A DNA stretch of 64,000 bases from Ignavibacteriota bacterium (GCA_963701295.1 OY969585.1:1-64000), one strand, 5' to 3'; positions 27,233-40,705 are shown, counted from the stretch's first letter. Program-made: numbers and translations. Notes: generated by a model from the letters alone, not told the origin.

Positions 27233-28029
27233 TTGTGCAAAATGTAGCCAAATATGAGAGGATTAGCAAGAATTGAGAAGTAAGAGATTATAAGATTGAG
27301 AGATAAGAAAAGAAAAATTGGGAGAAACCGCCCATTGAAGAAAAAAAGGCTCGACGAGGCACATGTTTTGACATCTCGTTGAATGACGGAAAGTCCCGCT
27401 GTACAGTTTCACTTACGAGCGGAATCCAAAATGCGGAAATGCAGAGTAATGATTTTTTTTGAACGGCAAAAACAACGGCGAAGAGAAAAAGAAGGATTGA
27501 TTACGACCCCTTCAGCCCCCAGAGGTCGCGTTGCGCGTTTTTTGCGTCCGCCATATTTTGGACGGATTAGGGGGCGCGCGTTCGCATATAAAAATGGTCA
27601 CACGCTTTGCGTGTGTTTGTAATGGGCCTCCGGCTGCCCTGATAGAAAAGATTCCATGCGGAATCAACATTATTCCAGCATAATTATAGCCGCCTGCCCG
27701 CCGGATCAGGCTGGGAATCTAGGAATAGGTAACCCAAAACTAATATATGAAACTGTGTTTATCGTCGCTTTCTTTGATTGCACAAAGCGACACATCTTCT
27801 TGACAATGCACTCAAGAAAAACCATATTGTTCCTGTTCCCAAGTTACCAAAGTGCTTGACAATTATTACGAATGTAAATTTATGACGTATACTGAAAAAA
27901 CAACATTTGAGATGAAGAGAAATATCAGTCGACTTTTCATGCGCATTAGTCACAAAGGGTCTACTCAGTCAACCTAATCACATATTAGAACACACGAATT
28001 ACATAACTATTCTTTCAAGGAAAAAAGCA

Positions 28030-28812
28030 GTGAAACGATTCTTTCTACTTCTTATTTCGGTTGCAATCTCATATTCAGTCTTTGGTCAAGCCAAGATGGT
28101 TATCAATAAGACATCCGGTACTGATTCACCTCCAACCGTTATTGCATCGGAAGAGTGGAATACCATCACAGATAACGACACGGCTAATCACGGTCACCTA
28201 ACATTTGAAAAATATTCAGATGGAAGTATTACAGTGAATGGTTATTGGTATTGAGGATCGATAGATGGGGTAATTTCAAGCGGAACTGGGACCATAGTCG
28301 ATACAGCTTTCTCAATTACTGAGCAAGGCACAGCAACAGACGCAACTGCACGCGTTGGCTATCAAAGCTCTACTTTCACAAACAATATAAGCGGTGGTGC
28401 TCACAATGGAAAATCGTCTGGCACGTACACAATCTCTTTTGCAACATCAGGATGGCCATCGAACAAACAGGGTATTTTTACTGCAACAAGGATAAGCGGA
28501 AGCGGGATTACAGTTTCTGTAAAAGAAATAACAAGCAAAACAGTTCCGGAAGCATTTACCTTATTCCAGAATTATCCCAATCCATTTAATCCAACGACAA
28601 CAATCTCCTTCACTCTTCCATCACGATCATTTGTATCGCTGAAAATATTTGATCTCTTAGGAAGAGAAATAGCGACCATTGTTACCGAAGAAATGTCGGC
28701 GGGAAGTTATTCTAAACAATGGAATGCATCAGCATTGTCAAATGGAGTATATTTCTATCGTTTACAAGCAGGCTCATACACAGAAACAAAGAAACTTGTT
28801 TTACTGAAATGA
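28030..28812 (+). pseudogene. Secreted protein with T9SS (Por secretion) C-terminal domain, interrupted by an in-frame TGA at 28252-28254
   Basis: Frame continues past TGA: GSIDGVISSG...FTLFQNYPNPFNPTTTISFTLP..VSLKIFDLLGREIATIV...GVYFYRLQAGSYTETKKLVLLK*. Confidence 0.85.
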
Positions 28813-28842
28813 ACTGCAATTGCATCCAGCCCGGCGTTCAAG

Positions 28843-28868
28843 CTCGGCTTACCGAGAAGAATGCATCA
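28843..28868 (+). repeat. Cassette-junction repeat copy 1
   Basis: CTCGGCTTACCGAGAAGAATGCATCA, preceded by attC-like left arm CCAGCCCGGCGTTCAAG. Confidence 0.8.
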
Positions 28869-28904
28869 CGCGGAGCAAACGGCCACCATAAACATATCGA
28901 TACT

Positions 28905-29208
28905 ATAAAATTTAGTGAACGTAAAGGTTTTGTAGCTGTTCAAAAGGTTCTCCAAAAAGATCAGATGAATGATGATTTGCGGAATTCACTCTGGAATATT
29001 CTTGATTTCATGATTTCGAAATCTGAAAATTTTCTATAGGATCAATATGATAGTCCATATATATATTTTTAGTCGTGCAACGTGGTTCGCTTATTTCAAA
29101 TTACCCATAGATAAAATACCAAATCGTTCTGCTGGTATATTAGCAAAGATTCGGGACCATTTCTTTAAATGCCAATGGCATGAAGCCTATGATATTCTCG
29201 CTGCCTAA
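28905..29208 (+). pseudogene. Broken AbiJ N-terminal-domain-like (AbiJ_NTD4) gene
   Basis: (ATA)KFSERKGFVAVQKVLQKDQMNDDLRNSLWNIL..FL* then frameshift to FSRATWFAYFKLPIDKIP...IRDHFFKCQWHEAYDIL. Confidence 0.7.
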
Positions 29209-29271
29209 CTTGGCACATCAAGCTCGGCTTGTCCGGAAGAATTCATCATGCGAATCGGTCATCCGTGAGGC
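29203..29271 (+). mobile_element. Degenerate attC site containing junction repeat copy 2
   Basis: R'' GCCTAAC (29203-29209), L''-like TCAAGCT, core CTCGGCTTGTCCGGAAGAATTCATCA, end ATCC-GTGAGGC (R' with one mismatch to GTTAGGC). Confidence 0.65.
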
Positions 29272-29299
29272 TACCAAATAAACAAAGGAGACTATCCTC

Positions 29300-29665
29300 A
29301 TGAACAAGAATTTAAAACAAATCCTCTTTTGGTCTCCACGAACTTTATGCATTCTGTTCGCGCTCTTTATCAGCATTTTTGCTCTTGATGTATTTCGTGA
29401 GGGGTATGACTTTTGGAAAACTCTTCTCGCACTAGCGATACACCTTATTCCAACAGTCATTGTTGTGCTCTTCTTAATTATCGCATGGCGATGGGAATGG
29501 ATTGGAGGAATTATATTCATTATCCTTGCCGTATTCTATATAATTTTGGCTTGGGGGAGATTCCCTTTCTCTGTCTATTTAACAATATCTGGGCCAATGA
29601 TAATCATAAGCATCCTATTTTTTCTCAATTGGAAGTATCGAACTGAAAAAAAAACAAGTAAATAG
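29300..29665 (+). CDS. Small four-TM membrane protein (cassette-type gene)
   Basis: 121 aa, AAGGAG RBS, W.PR.L.IL..LF.S.FALDVF..G..FW....AL.IHL.P pattern. Confidence 0.85.
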   Translation: MNKNLKQILFWSPRTLCILFALFISIFALDVFREGYDFWKTLLALAIHLIPTVIVVLFLIIAWRWEWIGGIIFIILAVFYIILAWGRFPFSVYLTISGPMIIISILFFLNWKYRTEKKTSK

Positions 29666-29676
29666 CGGCAGCACGA

Positions 29677-29710
29677 GTCGCTCACTCGGCTTGTCCGGAA
29701 GAATGCATCA
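29677..29710 (+). repeat. Cassette-junction repeat copy 3
   Basis: GTCGCTCACTCGGCTTGTCCGGAAGAATGCATCA, 11 bp after the stop codon. Confidence 0.85.
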
Positions 29711-29830
29711 CATGGAAGCCGCATGTAATTGACACTTATAAGAGTGTGTACCAATCCCAACAAAATCGGGACGTAGGCATTTTTTATGATTATTGCACTT
29801 AGATTGTTACATTAAACAACAGAGTTCTCC

Positions 29831-30256
29831 ATGATTACACAACTTGCTCATCTCAATTTATTCACCGATAGACACGAAGAAATGCTAAAATTCTATACGG
29901 ATGCGTTAGGCTTGAAGATACAATTCACACTGGATAACGATAAAGGCGTCCCTTTTGGGTGGTATCTTGCATGTGGTAGAATGACATTTATTGAGATCTT
30001 TGATCAAGCAGGGGCCGTTCGTCGATGGGGCGGAAAGGTTACAGAATTACAACACGGAAGTAAATATCGCCATCTCTGTTTTGAAGTAAAAGAATTAGAG
30101 GCCTACCGAGAAATGCTTATCGGAAAAGGAATATCTATTTCGGCGATTACTGTTGGATTGGATCATTCCAAACAAGCATGGATAAAAGACCCAGATGGCA
30201 ATGACATTGAATTAATGGAATATACACCCACAAGTTTTCAGATGAGTAGAAAATAA
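29831..30256 (+). CDS. VOC/glyoxalase family protein
   Basis: LAHLNL..D...MLKFY.DALGL, FIEIF, YRHLCFEV, WIKDPDGNDIELMEY. Confidence 0.92.
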   Translation: MITQLAHLNLFTDRHEEMLKFYTDALGLKIQFTLDNDKGVPFGWYLACGRMTFIEIFDQAGAVRRWGGKVTELQHGSKYRHLCFEVKELEAYREMLIGKGISISAITVGLDHSKQAWIKDPDGNDIELMEYTPTSFQMSRK

Positions 30257-30280
30257 CAGCTTAACCGCCGTCCGTTAGGC
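30251..30280 (+). mobile_element. Collapsed attC-like site
   Basis: AAATAAC overlapping the stop, then AGCTTAACCGCCGTCC-GTTAGGC (canonical GTTRRRY) 12 bp before the next ATG. Confidence 0.65.
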
Positions 30281-30292
30281 CAGTGACCATTT

Positions 30293-30706
30293 ATGATAAA
30301 GCCATCGACTATTTGCTTCAGTCTTTTGATTATGTTGTTCCCCAGCGTCTTATTGCAACATCAGCCGACGCGAGTTATTTCTGGCAAGGGTGTGTTTATC
30401 TTTGGGCCTTCGCTAGCCGAAGCTGATACATTGAGTTCCGACGAATCAGAAGCACTCAACGATTTTGCATATTATAGTAACAAAATTGCGATATTTGTGA
30501 GAGCCGAAGGTATTAAGTGCGAATACATCTCAGCCCGACAAATCAAAGTTCAATATGCTACAGTAAAAATATTCATTGTCAATCGAGATTCCATCGAATT
30601 TGGTACGATTCTCACTGATGGCATGAAAGAACCTCTGCTGCTCAAATATGTTTTGACTGACACTGATCTTGATGAGAAGTGCAAAGAATACTTCCACATC
30701 AAGTAG
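30293..30706 (+). CDS. Hypothetical exported protein
   Basis: 137-aa ORF with hydrophobic N-terminus directly after a GTTAGGC core site. Confidence 0.7.
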   Translation: MIKPSTICFSLLIMLFPSVLLQHQPTRVISGKGVFIFGPSLAEADTLSSDESEALNDFAYYSNKIAIFVRAEGIKCEYISARQIKVQYATVKIFIVNRDSIEFGTILTDGMKEPLLLKYVLTDTDLDEKCKEYFHIK

Positions 30707-30711
30707 CCGCT

Positions 30712-31027
30712 GTTTGATTAAACGCTCAAGTCCCGATAAACAACATCGGGATGTAAAAAAAACGACGAAACGAGTATTCGTACGTCTTGTATGGCGAGTA
30801 TAGGTAAAAAGAATGAACTATAACAAAGAACCACACTTCGCGTGTTACAGGAACGGAAGAATATCTGTGTAGCTTTTGTTATCCCGCATAGCGGGATAAC
30901 ATTTATACGCAGACTCCGACTGTTTAGCACACTTTGATAGTTTTTCAGTACGGCAGTCCCGCTGTACGGGATCCTCGATTCGACTCTTTTAGTCGAATCA
31001 AGACTTAGCGCTCATCCGCAAGGTAGG
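30712..31027 (+). mobile_element. Long degenerate attC-like element with nested hairpins
   Basis: Left CGCTCAAGTC pairs with right GACTT-AGCG (one extrahelical base), followed by CTCATCCGCAAGGT; interior holds several TCCCG..CGGGA palindromes. Confidence 0.5.
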
Positions 31028-31076
31028 CAGAAAAAAACTACAACTTTATCAATGTAAATTAAAAGCGAGAGGACCT

Positions 31077-31781
31077 ATGAAAGCAATACTCTATTGCTGT
31101 ATGATTCTATTTATGTTTTCATGTACCGTAAACGCACAAGATAGTACAAGTAATGCAAAAATAGATTCCGTGCTTTATTATCAAAAGAAGATGTTAAATC
31201 AACAAGAAAAAATATACAATGAGGTTGTGCGTTATAAAGAACCGCTGGAGAATAAAAAATTTGGTATCGAGATCAATCCGGCATATATGCTGCTCAGCAG
31301 CGCCCGTTCATATTTTGTGTTAAGCGGAGGATTTTCTTTCTTCAATATAGATCGACACGCAGAAATTGCGTGTCCGATTTTTTATCAAAACGGAGCCGGT
31401 AATAACTCAGGGGTTCATGAATTGACATTGTGGAATCAAGATATAGTATATCGAAAATTTTTAGGGCAGCATCAGGACGGATTTTATCTAGAGGGAGGTT
31501 TACGCTATACGCATATCAAAGGAGAATCTAACGATGGTGTTTCCATACTGGGAGTAAGTTTATTTTCAACATACCCTCCTTCAATAATAACCACGGATAA
31601 GCTCGGAGGGATGTTTGGTATCGGGTACAGGTATTTTTCAGTGTCAGGGTTTTATTGGGGAACAAGTCTTGTGGTAGGGGCATATTTTTCTGCTGATGAA
31701 AGAACGATACAAGGGATAATATTGGATGATACAAGAACCATATTTGATTTCGAAATATTGAAATTTGGTTATTCGTTCTAA
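31077..31781 (+). CDS. Hypothetical exported protein, probable outer-membrane beta-barrel
   Basis: Signal peptide ending VNA-Q, alternating beta-strand pattern, C-terminal KFGYSF; GAGAGG RBS. Confidence 0.75.
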   Translation: MKAILYCCMILFMFSCTVNAQDSTSNAKIDSVLYYQKKMLNQQEKIYNEVVRYKEPLENKKFGIEINPAYMLLSSARSYFVLSGGFSFFNIDRHAEIACPIFYQNGAGNNSGVHELTLWNQDIVYRKFLGQHQDGFYLEGGLRYTHIKGESNDGVSILGVSLFSTYPPSIITTDKLGGMFGIGYRYFSVSGFYWGTSLVVGAYFSADERTIQGIILDDTRTIFDFEILKFGYSF

Positions 31782-31785
31782 CTAC

Positions 31786-31879
31786 GCCCTAACATAGGCT
31801 CAAGTCCCACTATTAATATTTCTAATGTAGCGCGATAGCGCTTATGTCGCTCACTCGGCTTGTCCGGAAAAATGCATTA
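31786..31879 (+). repeat. attC-like left arm plus cassette-junction repeat copy 4
   Basis: GCCCTAAC-ATAGGC-TCAAGTCCC just after the stop; GTCGCTCACTCGGCTTGTCCGGAAAAATGCATTA at 31846-31879. Confidence 0.75.
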
Positions 31880-31995
31880 CAGCCGGAGATTTGAGAATGT
31901 AATTGCAAGAGATGCAAAACGACTTTATAATATGTAAATTCATGGCAAATATAAGCGTATTGAATGAACTATTAAAAAAGGAAAAGAACCTCTAT

Positions 31996-32697
31996 ATGAA
32001 GCTGCTAACAAATAAATGGGCACTTGTGACAGGCTCCAGCAGGGGTATCGGCCAGCAAATCGCGATTGGCCTTGCCCAGCGTAAATGCAACGTCATCGTG
32101 CATGGACGTATGGAAAGTCACACCGCAGAAACTCTAAAGCGGCTGAAAACCTATACTGTCCAAACTCATGCCGTCACAGGCGATTTGGAAAACGCGAAGA
32201 ACGTTGAAGCCATCATCCAGGAAGTTAAGTCAAGTCCTGGTTCGGTGGATATTCTCTACAACAATGCTGCCATCCAAAATAAGTGGAAACCCATCTGGGA
32301 GATTAGCATAGACGAGTGGCTTCAGTCCTTCCAGATCAATCTCTTTGCTATGGTGGCACTGTGCAATGCCTTTGCGCCTGAGATGAAACGTCGTGGATAC
32401 GGACGCATTATCAACCTGACCTCCGGCATCAAGGATATTCCGCAGTTAGCACCTTATAGTGTCTCGAAGGCCGCTGTAGATAAATACAGCCGTGATCTGG
32501 CAGCGGAATTACGGGGTACGAATGTGCTGGTGAATTACTTAGATCCAGGTTGGTTGAAAACAGACTTGGGCGGGCCGAATGGGGAAAATGCGGTCGAGGC
32601 GGTATTACCGGGAGCGTTAGTGCCTGCTTTGTTGGAAGATCATGGGCCAAGCGGGCGGTTCTATGCAGCGCAAGATTACAAAGTTCTGGAGTACTAA
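31996..32697 (+). CDS. SDR family NAD(P)-dependent oxidoreductase
   Basis: ALVTGSSRGIG, LYNNAA, catalytic YSVSK, DPGWLKTD; probable ATG at 31996. Confidence 0.92.
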   Translation: MKLLTNKWALVTGSSRGIGQQIAIGLAQRKCNVIVHGRMESHTAETLKRLKTYTVQTHAVTGDLENAKNVEAIIQEVKSSPGSVDILYNNAAIQNKWKPIWEISIDEWLQSFQINLFAMVALCNAFAPEMKRRGYGRIINLTSGIKDIPQLAPYSVSKAAVDKYSRDLAAELRGTNVLVNYLDPGWLKTDLGGPNGENAVEAVLPGALVPALLEDHGPSGRFYAAQDYKVLEY

Positions 32698-40630: not shown

Positions 40631-40705
40631 TCCGCGATAGCTCAATGGTGGAGCATCCGGCTGTTAACCGGAGGGTTGTAGGTTCGAGTCCTACTCGCGG
40701 AGCCA
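40631..40705 (+). tRNA. tRNA-Asn (GTT)
   Basis: TCCGCGATAGCTCAATGGTGGAGC-A-TCCGG-CTGTTAA-CCGGA-GGGTT-GTAGGTTCGAGTCCTAC-TCGCGGA-G-CCA cloverleaf. Confidence 0.97.

Follow-up and report, generated by a model that had tools for sequence, protein, structure and literature searches.

What is the 26-nt motif that recurs at four gene-cassette junctions of an Ignavibacteriota bacterium? The motif lies in a window of 64,000 nucleotides, which is the whole stretch of DNA analysed here (GCA_963701295.1 OY969585.1:1-64000). The original prediction placed it where the right arm of an attC site should be. It was read as the footprint of an element that inactivates attC hairpins, and as the best candidate in the window for an undescribed mobile or recombination system, with a lineage-specific attC interior as the fallback. 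Our analyses favour the fallback. The motif is probably a genus-specific, cis-acting module of the attC interior, without autonomous function, that survives in the decayed array of the window.

A motif scan of the whole window returned copies at 29223 (one mismatch), 29685 (exact) and 31854 (two mismatches), all on the plus strand, where 0.00 matches are expected by chance (100 shuffles). A fourth copy on the same strand, at 28843, differs from the motif at four positions, and its changes produce a perfect local hairpin, CTCGG-CTTA-CCGAG. No copies beyond these four were found in the window at up to six substitutions, so the set of four copies in one orientation, with none elsewhere in the window, stands as first noticed. 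The same is true of their setting, as every copy is 3′ of a gene end and of an L''-like left arm (..TCAAG or ..GCTCA). Mean ungapped pairwise identity of the four copies falls from 0.87 within the motif to 0.29 over the 26 nt before it and 0.27 over the 26 nt after it, in line with the claim that the motif is better conserved than the surrounding arms, with the caveats that the copies were picked by the motif itself and that the flank differences are partly indels or modules. Overall, conservation is 0.85-0.87 for the motif versus 0.27-0.45 for the flanks.

Two parts of the earlier description need revision. The motif does not replace the right arm; it starts at the distal edge of the L'' box, where the variable terminal structure (VTS) has its base, and the R' remnants of junctions 2 and 3 lie 3′ of it, farther downstream. 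The motif is indeed not palindromic when taken alone, but its 5′ end forms a palindrome with the preceding CAAG, CAAGC-TCG-GCTTG, which overlaps the L'' box. The features of the window array are as follows.

28255..28812, plus strand: last gene before the array, the C-terminal part of a T9SS-sorted protein (Pfam Por_Secre_tail, E 8.5e-14)
28822..28842, plus strand: junction 1 (J1), decayed R''/L'' left arm GCATCCAGCCCGGCGTTCAAG (from sequence and alignment with the other junctions)
28843..28868, plus strand: motif copy 1, four mismatches, with the internal hairpin
28887..29208, plus strand: AbiJ_NTD4-like cassette gene, broken, in two frames (Pfam PF18863, E 1.3e-7 and 9.6e-5, spanning profile positions 2-39 and 59-94 of 152)
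29203..29222, plus strand: junction 2 (J2), R'' box GCCTAAC (29203-29209) and L'' arm, matching the attC left arm of the genome
29223..29248, plus strand: motif copy 2, one mismatch
29249..29271, plus strand: right end of J2, TGCGAATCGGTCATCC and R' remnant GTGAGGC (29265-29271), homologous to a short attC of the sister genome G057
29300..29665, plus strand: cassette gene for a DUF7670 membrane protein (Pfam, E 1e-37)
29664..29684, plus strand: junction 3 (J3), decayed left arm ending in GTCGCTCA (from sequence)
29685..29710, plus strand: motif copy 3, exact
29711..29778, plus strand: right part of J3, with CATGGAAGCCGCATGT, two inserted hairpins (GACACT..AGTGTG and TCCCAAC..TCGGGA) and R' remnant GTAGGC (29773-29778)
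29831..30256, plus strand: cassette gene of the glyoxalase/VOC family (Pfam PF00903, E 1.7e-11)
30257..30280, plus strand: solitary L'/R' attC right end CAGCTTAACCGCCGTCCGTTAGGC without the motif (match on the minus strand at 30279)
30293..30706, plus strand: cassette gene, 137 aa, no Pfam family
30716..31028, plus strand: long attC, degenerate and motif-free, enlarged by inserted hairpins (GTCCCGAT..ATCGGGAT, GTTATCCCGC..GCGGGATAAC, GTCCCGC..ACGGGAT and GATTCGA..TCGAATC), ending in ..ACTTAGCGCTCATCCGCAAGGTAGGC
31077..31781, plus strand: cassette gene, 234 aa, signal peptide, no Pfam family
31786..31853, plus strand: junction 4 (J4), R'' GCCCTAAC (31786-31793), L'' ATAGGCTCAAG and an inserted module of about 49 nt ending in GTCGCTCA
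31854..31879, plus strand: motif copy 4, two mismatches
31880..31970, plus strand: class A continuation after copy 4, with CAGCCGGAG.., hairpin ATTGCAAGAGATGCAA and ..AAATTCATGGCA..GAATGAACTATT, aligning with intact class A attCs at 1160592 and 1161885
32008..32697, plus strand: short-chain dehydrogenase, the last cassette or a flanking gene (Pfam adh_short, E 3.3e-47)
After 32697, minus strand: core genes, a 249-aa ORF and then a 672-aa ORF (ORF map)

An in-frame stop at 28252-28254 splits the T9SS gene part from 27916-28251. The 249-aa ORF, a putative sdhB judging by its own sequence and its neighbours, has 90% DNA identity to its G057 counterpart.

The four junctions differ in what is left of their R boxes. 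J2 has R'' GCCTAAC and an R' with one mismatch, and its arms are unpaired in predicted folds. J3 has an eroded R'' and a shrunken R', J4 has R'' only, and both boxes are eroded in J1. No significant matches of the genome's own attC HMM were found in the window (nhmmer), and in a maximum-sensitivity run on 14 motif copies those of the window gave weak partial matches only. The four sites appear to be deletion or decay derivatives of attC, an ancestry that is drawn from their short arm remnants and their homology to G057 sites, and they are probably no longer recombinogenic.

For example, J2 as a whole (29203-29271) is a short attC derivative of about 69 nt that aligns with one G057 short site through to the R' position, and its G057 homologue at the orthologous locus ends in GTTAGGC. 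The attC of J4 is cut off at 31970, and the next gene has no preceding R'. The lone right end at 30257..30280 is a site of which the left half and interior have been deleted. The array as a whole, of about seven cassettes, is old, decaying and integrase-less, and lies between the gene for the T9SS protein and the succinate dehydrogenase genes. G057 has an array at the orthologous locus too, with different cassettes; the sole one in common is the 234-aa cassette (92% DNA identity), and the difference in cassette content shows past turnover only.

The wider genome provides the context in which these sites can be interpreted. A true IntI is encoded at 3566721-3567662 (TIGR02249, 453 bits against a cut-off of 265) and adjoins one array. 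Relatives of this protein in genome contigs, from many phyla, reach up to 63% identity, and none is close. An attC HMM built from 53 standard attCs gave 203 matches in at least eight arrays in a genome-wide search, and the genome holds approximately 170 long, conserved attC sites (150-195 nt, up to about 300 with inserts) in these arrays, most of which have no integrase. Counting arms, there are 150 left and 135 right, with a right arm within 500 nt of 100 of the 150 left arms; the resulting pairs peak in size at 150-159 nt and 180-199 nt. We folded the bottom strands of 112 standard sites, with the VTS swapped for a 4-nt loop. The commonest predicted folds have paired R boxes, an unpaired spacer and an extrahelical G and T on the R''-L'' arm (..CCG-T-CAGCTT-G-AGCGCC..). 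Paired R boxes, an unpaired spacer and extrahelical bases are presented as defining features of attC in PMC2727003. ORF maps around all motif copies show mostly promoterless single genes in co-oriented arrays, with an attC at their 3′ ends. The genus has a sedentary chromosomal integron together with many integrase-less arrays.

Where does the motif occur outside the window? In this genome (G000), 14 of the 15 matches at up to six substitutions follow an L'' arm. A complete attC right half is present in four of these 14 copies (E 1e-21 to 1e-29), which have GCCTAAC ... GTTAGGC. In the G057 and G043 genomes of the two sister species, an R' box is found within 330 nt of the motif in 15 of 24 contexts, R'' and R' both being present. 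In metagenomes, all 60 distinct contexts have the motif after an L''-type end (38 of class B, 19 of class A and 3 of other architecture), and TCCGTTAGG occurs within 330 nt in 31 of them, again with both R boxes. In all three sets, the contexts that do not reach R' are cut short, exceed the 330-nt span or run into a contig end. The motif is thus found in the ordinary interior of intact attC sites, as a minority subtype, which had been named in advance as the observation that would speak against a footprint. Its position and orientation relative to L'' are constant in both sister species and in the 60 metagenome contexts. One metagenome run (X1) contains the same sequence as the window in fragments, at very low depth, and another (X2) contains cassettes of relatives in other contexts. 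Joints seen in these runs (e.g. 31792 to 30793) were set aside as evidence, having short sides or low likeness.

The abundance of the motif varies widely between relatives. Counts are 11 in G000, 41 in G057, 7 in G043 and 0 in G017, where the standard left arms number 138, 56, 188 and 62 respectively. The motif was found in none of 57 genomes from 32 other genera of the family, and appears to be restricted to this genus.

Three architectures carry the motif: short sites, class A and class B. In the short sites the motif is essentially the whole loop, and at the orthologous G057 locus they run R''-L''-motif-~20 nt-GTTAGG. In class B the motif is followed by a small hairpin (ATCACGC-GAA-GCGTGAT), and in class A by a nested, longer form. 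Pairing in the class B hairpin is 96%, with covariation at one pair (GC to UA in 8 of 35 sequences) and a second pair changed from AT to GC in the G057 copies. By hmmalign the module falls at model positions ~22-36, one of at least five optional insert positions. When 13 motif-type sites were folded with the VTS truncated, the palindrome CAAGC-TCG-GCTTG competed with the canonical L stem, and the folds were heterogeneous with no common canonical one. These sites keep the G position in sequence and lose the second bulge (AAGCT-CGG versus AAGCTG-A-CGG). We considered whether class B arose by joining a short attC to the right-hand portion of a standard one, and rejected this since the linker ACTTAATCTC is too variable and AT-rich for a decayed R' box. 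A simpler reading is that the short sites are internal-deletion derivatives, as suggested by site L176, which retains L' and R' directly after the motif.

Taken together, these observations suggest a subfamily of long attC sites with a module that directly adjoins the L'' box. Six bases at the start of the motif, CTCGGC, would lengthen the L''/L' stem region, and the remaining bases, TTGTCCRGAAGAATGMATCA, would lie at the base of the VTS, followed by the class B hairpin or the class A version. The attC sites of the window probably derive from this subfamily, through deletions of interior or right-arm sequence and the acquisition of unrelated hairpins, so that the recognisable repeat would now be the left arm plus the motif. 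In the decayed sites the motif lies 52-129 nt upstream of the next start codon. It may well be a functionally neutral passenger of the VTS.

IS1111-attC elements and group IIC-attC introns target attC hairpins and inactivate them. Could the motif nevertheless be a footprint, or a leftover end, of an element with this behaviour? All four motif-bearing window sites are without a normal right half, attC-targeting IS1111-type elements are active in the genome, with 13 of 13 transposase matches inside arrays, and solo IS ends remain in some attCs (sites near 1809957 and 2384585). However, the insertion point of both IS types of the genome is in the R'' box (CCTAA^CCAG on the top strand), 15-20 nt upstream of the motif start, and the elements run antisense to the cassettes. 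The class A and B modules have no Smith-Waterman similarity to either type, on both strands, above shuffles (of 200 shuffles, 45 to 193 equal or exceed the real score). Ten nucleotides, CCAGAAGAAT, recur inside IS type B; this identity was spotted by eye and is treated as chance because the motif-IS alignments are no better than shuffles. Neither group II intron RNA (RF00029) nor reverse transcriptase (RVT_1, PF00078) has a match in this 99.3%-complete genome, and no longer versions of the motif were found next to a transposase, reverse transcriptase or recombinase. Rfam gave no match at E<=1 for 28700-32100, and an Rfam 15 gathering scan of the whole window returned a single match, a tRNA at 40631-40702. 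Elsewhere, moreover, the motif lies at one position and in one orientation in sites with intact R'' and R' boxes. We regard a footprint as highly improbable, and the window offers no new attC-targeting system.

A different kind of mobility would be that of a MITE- or REP-like non-autonomous module, with the motif as its core, which inserted, or is still inserting, in the attC loop region and spread among cassettes by homologous exchange between very similar attCs. The module is polymorphic for presence and absence with sharp boundaries between otherwise collinear attCs (..GCTCAAGCT[GA]CGG-AATGAGCG.. versus ..GCTCAAGCTCGG[~45 nt]AATGAGCG..), at least four more optional hairpin modules are found elsewhere in these attCs, and the ratio of motif copies to standard left arms ranges from 41 / 56 in G057 through 11 / 138 in G000 to 0 / 62 in G017. 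We nonetheless consider it unlikely, as the motif is never outside attC and keeps to a single position and orientation, neither target duplication nor terminal inverted repeats were seen, and no associated gene could mobilise it; duplication within the site is an alternative origin, given that GAAGAATGA.. recurs as GAGAATGT.. in class A.

The motif could also have been co-opted within attC as a binding site for a protein of the host or an accessory protein of the integron, an L''-sequestering folding switch, or an RNA element that influences the cassette gene downstream of it. Its conservation above the flanks across three architectures and three species, its retention ahead of start codons in decayed sites, and a local palindrome that overlaps the L'' box are all compatible with such a role. 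Bacteroidota-type promoters have a -33/-7 pattern; judged by eye, the sequence has no such pattern and no T-run terminator. No Rfam family matches it, covariation backs only the neighbouring small hairpin, with one or two changes, and most attCs of the genome do not carry the motif. Conservation of whole sites is normal in sedentary chromosomal integrons (e.g. VCR-type repeats). A co-opted function of this kind is very unlikely. A related proposal, distinctly unlikely in our estimation, is that the motif is a control element of an attC subclass. Its 5′ end, CAAGC-TCG-GCTTG, would fold back on L'' and compete with the recombinogenic L stem, and a factor of the host or the integron could bind its conserved single-stranded stretch, TCCRGAAGAATGMATCA. 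If true, the genus would have 'lockable' cassettes whose excision is regulated separately, and this would explain why the motif outlasts the rest of the site in immobilised arrays. A neutral loop does not obviously predict a motif that is far better conserved than its flanks and common to three downstream architectures.

The attC-interior reading can be compared with some well-studied systems. The sites here resemble the VCR of Vibrio cholerae and other species-specific attC repeats of that type from sedentary chromosomal integrons, whose VTS is large and branched. They share with them the inverted R''/R' and L''/L' boxes, an unpaired spacer, an extrahelical G and T on the bottom strand, high sequence identity between the more than 100 sites within one genome, a real IntI beside one array, and a long interior (VTS) that tolerates deletion or alteration. 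PMC2727003 describes conserved extrahelical bases in VCR; in that study, replacing the 65-nt VTS by GAA changed recombination less than 2.5-fold. Unlike VCR, the sites here are longer (150-195 nt, up to about 300), visibly modular with at least five optional insert positions, and spread over at least eight arrays that are mostly integrase-less; the motif subtype has three architectures, with a competing palindrome where the 5′ end of the motif overlaps the L'' stem.

The IS elements of the genome lie near the 5′ end of attC and antisense to the cassettes, like the IS1111-attC group (ISPa21, ISPst6 and ISKpn4), for which this arrangement is described in PMC3001079. The 26-nt motif is not part of the elements or their remnants, differing in position and showing no sequence similarity. 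According to the same paper, group IIC-attC introns also insert into attC in antisense (PMC3001079), whereas this genome has neither a reverse transcriptase nor domain V/VI RNA, and the motif region has no Rfam match. The window array resembles a CALIN, with small same-strand cassettes split by attC-derived junctions, and is about 106 kb from intI on a circular map (the 3.64-Mb single contig is presumably circular). PMC9024848 proposes that CALINs are degraded integrons. Here, unlike in a CALIN, decay is so advanced that the window has no match to an HMM built from the attCs of this very genome.

In summary, a free-living genus of the FCB group carries about 170 long, sequence-conserved attC sites in many arrays, with interiors built of optional modules. 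The attC subfamily marked by one of these modules is common in one species (41 copies), and the sister species have few such sites or none. The attC sites here decay by internal deletion, and sites that are modular or truncated are likely missed or split by standard attC models, so that cassette counts in such genomes may be underestimated. This is of interest mainly to integron specialists, for whom the paired standard and motif-type sites are natural material on the role of the variable terminal structure.

A scan of the window placed copies of the 26-bp motif at four junctions of a small cassette array, with 0 matches expected by chance (100 dinucleotide-preserving shuffles of the window). 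The fourth copy, at 28843, differs at four positions, and its changes turn CTCGGCTTGTCCGG into a perfect hairpin, CTCGG-CTTA-CCGAG.

Junctions of the window array
28843, + strand: motif, four differences (junction 1)
29223, + strand: motif, one mismatch (junction 2)
29685, + strand: motif, exact (junction 3)
30257-30280: lone L'/R' end
30716-31028: swollen, degenerate site without the motif
31854, + strand: motif, two mismatches (junction 4)

Upstream of every copy is the stop codon of a + strand ORF followed by a short arm ending in TCAAG or GCTCA. The scan, the ORFs and the sequence thus confirm the original prediction of four copies in one orientation, each after a gene end and an attC-like left arm. 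That the motif occurs nowhere else in the window also held, at up to six substitutions. Its better conservation than the surrounding arms was borne out as well, with a mean ungapped pairwise identity of 0.87 against 0.29 for the 26 nt before and 0.27 for the 26 nt after, in a comparison that is biased because the copies were picked by the motif itself and the flanks differ by indels.

The window is the initial 64 kb of one 3.64-Mb contig, and the genome encodes a genuine integron integrase at 3566721-3567662 (TIGR02249, 453 bits against a cut-off of 265). An arm search of the genome found 150 left and 135 right arms, with a right arm at most 500 nt away for 100 of the left arms; the paired arms give size peaks at 150-159 nt (n=52) and 180-199 nt (n=34). 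The standard consensus is GCCTAAC-CA-GGCGCTCAAGCTGACGG, then about 110 nt of conserved interior, then CCGCAGCTTAGCGCC-GGTCC-GTTAGGC. An attC HMM built from 53 standard sites of this genome has 203 genome matches at E<1e-3, none of them inside the window.

attC arrays located with the HMM
225-261 kb
1156-1166 kb
1797-1810 kb
2373-2495 kb
2820-2833 kb
3134-3171 kb
3439-3457 kb
3532-3565 kb, adjoining intI

For 112 standard sites we predicted bottom-strand folds with a 4-nt loop in place of the interior. In the commonest predicted folds the R boxes are paired, the spacer is unpaired, and a T and a G bulge from the L stem on the R''-L'' arm. Paired R boxes, an unpaired spacer and extrahelical bases define attC in the excerpted text of PMC2727003. 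Because the predicted folds show these features, the sites are ordinary, though long, attC of a sedentary chromosomal integron, many of whose arrays lack an integrase. Ignavibacteriae and Chlorobi were already known to have integrons (PMC9024848). A type IX secretion sorting domain, a hallmark of the FCB group, was also found.

At up to six substitutions the motif has 15 matches in the genome, 14 of them preceded by an L''-type arm; the fifteenth, at 2080476, looks like chance. A motif variant from the sister species, used as query, found one extra diverged copy in attC context. From the L'' box a standard site continues GCTCAAG-CTGACGGAATGAGCG, and the motif type GCTCAAG-CTCGGCTTGTCCAGAAGAATGAATCA before returning to the normal interior at AATGAGCG. 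A complete attC right half follows four of the 14 copies (1160592, 1161885, 1406108 and 3536126; E 1e-21 to 1e-29) and a partial one follows two; the HMM detects no significant right half at the window's four copies. These comparisons show that the motif belongs to the attC DNA itself: its first bases prolong the L'' arm, and the remainder lies at the base of the variable terminal structure (VTS). The motif had been thought to take the place of the right arm; instead it opens the interior, and at the window's motif junctions the right arms have been deleted or eroded.

Alignment with hmmalign places the motif module as an insert at model positions ~22-36, one among at least five optional insert positions, the others being 17, 34/35, 57-82 and 138-159. 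This modularity is seen in attC genome-wide (e.g. 1156310, 2826468, 3442800 and 3562124), with optional inserts that recur at set places: CCGCCCAACAAGACGGCGGGCAAGC where L'' has its extrahelical base, CCCGCCCAAAGATAAAGCATGGCGGGTAAA at position 35, an AT-rich block of ~37 nt at 57-82, and hairpin pairs before L'. Hairpins of the form CCCGCC..GGCGGG lie within 300 nt of an attC match in 21 of 25 cases, and such zones make up at most 4% of the genome. There are 17 small TCCCGC-N3-6-GCGGGA hairpins in the genome (one at window 30882-30900), and 16 of them lie at a distance from any recognisable attC. They resemble a REP-like repeat whose copies also reach decayed attCs.

A survey of 61 family genomes, allowing three mismatches, confined the motif to the window's genus, with 0 of 57 genomes from 32 other genera carrying it.

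Counts of motifs and standard arms in genomes of the genus
G000 (the window's genome): motif 11, left arms 138, right arms 125
G057: motif 41, left arms 56, right arms 81
G043: motif 7, left arms 188, right arms 200
G017: motif 0, left arms 62, right arms 51

Set against the standard arms, the motif type accounts for roughly two fifths of the G057 sites and a few percent of those elsewhere. At loci of G057 and G043 the sites around the motif bear R'' and R', with R' within 330 nt in 15 of 24 contexts. A single exact-pattern scan of metagenome contigs gave 63 loci in 60 distinct contexts, all 60 preceded by an L''-type end; 38 are class B (CGCGAAGCGTGATACT), 19 are class A (with AGCCGGAGGCC, a longer nested version) and three are other. 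TCCGTTAGG follows within 330 nt in 31 of the 60, the others being cut off, too long for that distance or interrupted by the end of a contig. Over 35 sequences, the class B hairpin ATCACGC-GAA-GCGTGAT shows 96% pairing, and eight of the sequences change one pair from GC to UA, in an alignment partly fixed by the search pattern; in the G057 copies a second pair changes from AT to GC.

G057 has a cassette array at the same chromosomal position, between a TPR-protein gene and a putative sdhB (names inferred from sequence and neighbours). Only a 234-aa cassette (92% identity) is common to both arrays, and the other genes differ, which implies cassette turnover after the species split. In this G057 locus (L045, G057:C2:143500-153500) ORFs of 361, 308, 92, 436, 166 and 489 aa surround the shared cassette. 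Two of its three motif copies are in short sites with an intact R' box: the first reads GGCTGAC..L''..motif..CGCGAGGCGGTCATGTGTTAGGC, and the second, of 66 nt, reads GCCCTAAC-ATCGGCGCTCA-motif-CATTTAGGAGCTATCGTTAGGT, its predicted bottom-strand fold pairing the R boxes with the motif in the loop. At this locus G000 now has sites that look decayed. Junction 2 can be aligned with the first short site up to the R' position and ends TGCGAATCGGTCATCCGTGAGGC; junction 3 starts in the same way, then has two inserted hairpins and GTAGGC; junction 1 is more decayed than either, and junction 4, of class A, breaks off ahead of the next gene.

The window cassettes (a broken AbiJ-like gene, DUF7670, a glyoxalase-family gene, two without family and an SDR) are typical small accessory genes. 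Before the array, the gene for a T9SS-sorted protein (27916-28812) has an in-frame stop at 28252-28254, with the signal peptide on one side and Por_Secre_tail on the other; a pseudogene, readthrough or a sequencing error could each account for this. Between it and a minus-strand gene for a 1226-aa TPR-like protein lie ~650 nt without a long ORF (27263-27915), with stretches 86-93% identical in G057 and no Rfam match.

The original prediction favoured the footprint or end of an element that targets attC, and such elements are present: all 13 Transposase_20 (IS110/IS1111) matches in the genome lie inside attC arrays.

Transposase_20 matches, contig G000:C1, outside the window
226528, 235102, 254715, 2396830, 2409121, 2413385, 2474810
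2480187, 2828556, 3164255, 3543148, 3556998, 3563403

Type A (~1.43 kb) has nine near-identical copies and two at ~82% identity, and type B has two copies. Both insert within the R'' box at top-strand CCTAA^CCAG, CCAG flanks both sides, and the transposase is antisense to the cassettes. The R''-end placement and antisense transposase are shared with the IS1111-attC group as described in excerpts of PMC3001079 and PMC11187229, and together the insertions amount to an IS1111-attC-like burst in a genome of the FCB group. Solo IS ends remain in attCs near 1809957 and 2384585. The motif starts 15-20 nt further into the site than the IS insertion point, and local alignment of the class A and B modules with both IS types, on both strands, scored within the range of 200 shuffles. 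By genome position no transposase or recombinase match lies within 5 kb of any motif copy, and the suggested longer versions flanking such a gene or a reverse transcriptase did not materialize; searches of the genome for group II intron RNA and for RVT_1 gave no match, and Rfam finds nothing in the motif region. Because the tests of IS position and similarity, neighbours, introns and Rfam were all negative, the footprint reading is unsupported. The fallback of a lineage-specific attC interior is supported by the genus-restricted occurrence of the motif inside R''/R'-bearing sites.

The module is most likely a tolerated passenger of one attC lineage and travels along with the cassettes; exchange between near-identical sites may have helped to spread it. 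On this reading the array in the window is old and integrase-less, with sites that are probably dead. In the excerpted PMC2727003, replacing the 65-nt VTS of VCR by GAA or TTC moved recombination 1.6-fold up or 2.4-fold down. The motif is common to three architectures and conserved above its flanks, and its 5' end forms with the L'' box a local palindrome that displaces the canonical L stem in 13 predicted truncated folds. Given this conservation and competition, the motif may, at low probability, help to control folding or bind a protein. Our search for literature joining attC, integron and Ignavibacteri- found only IntegronFinder 2.0, and was not aimed at modular attC interiors. Rather than a new system, the motif-bearing sites form a new subfamily within a known kind of site.
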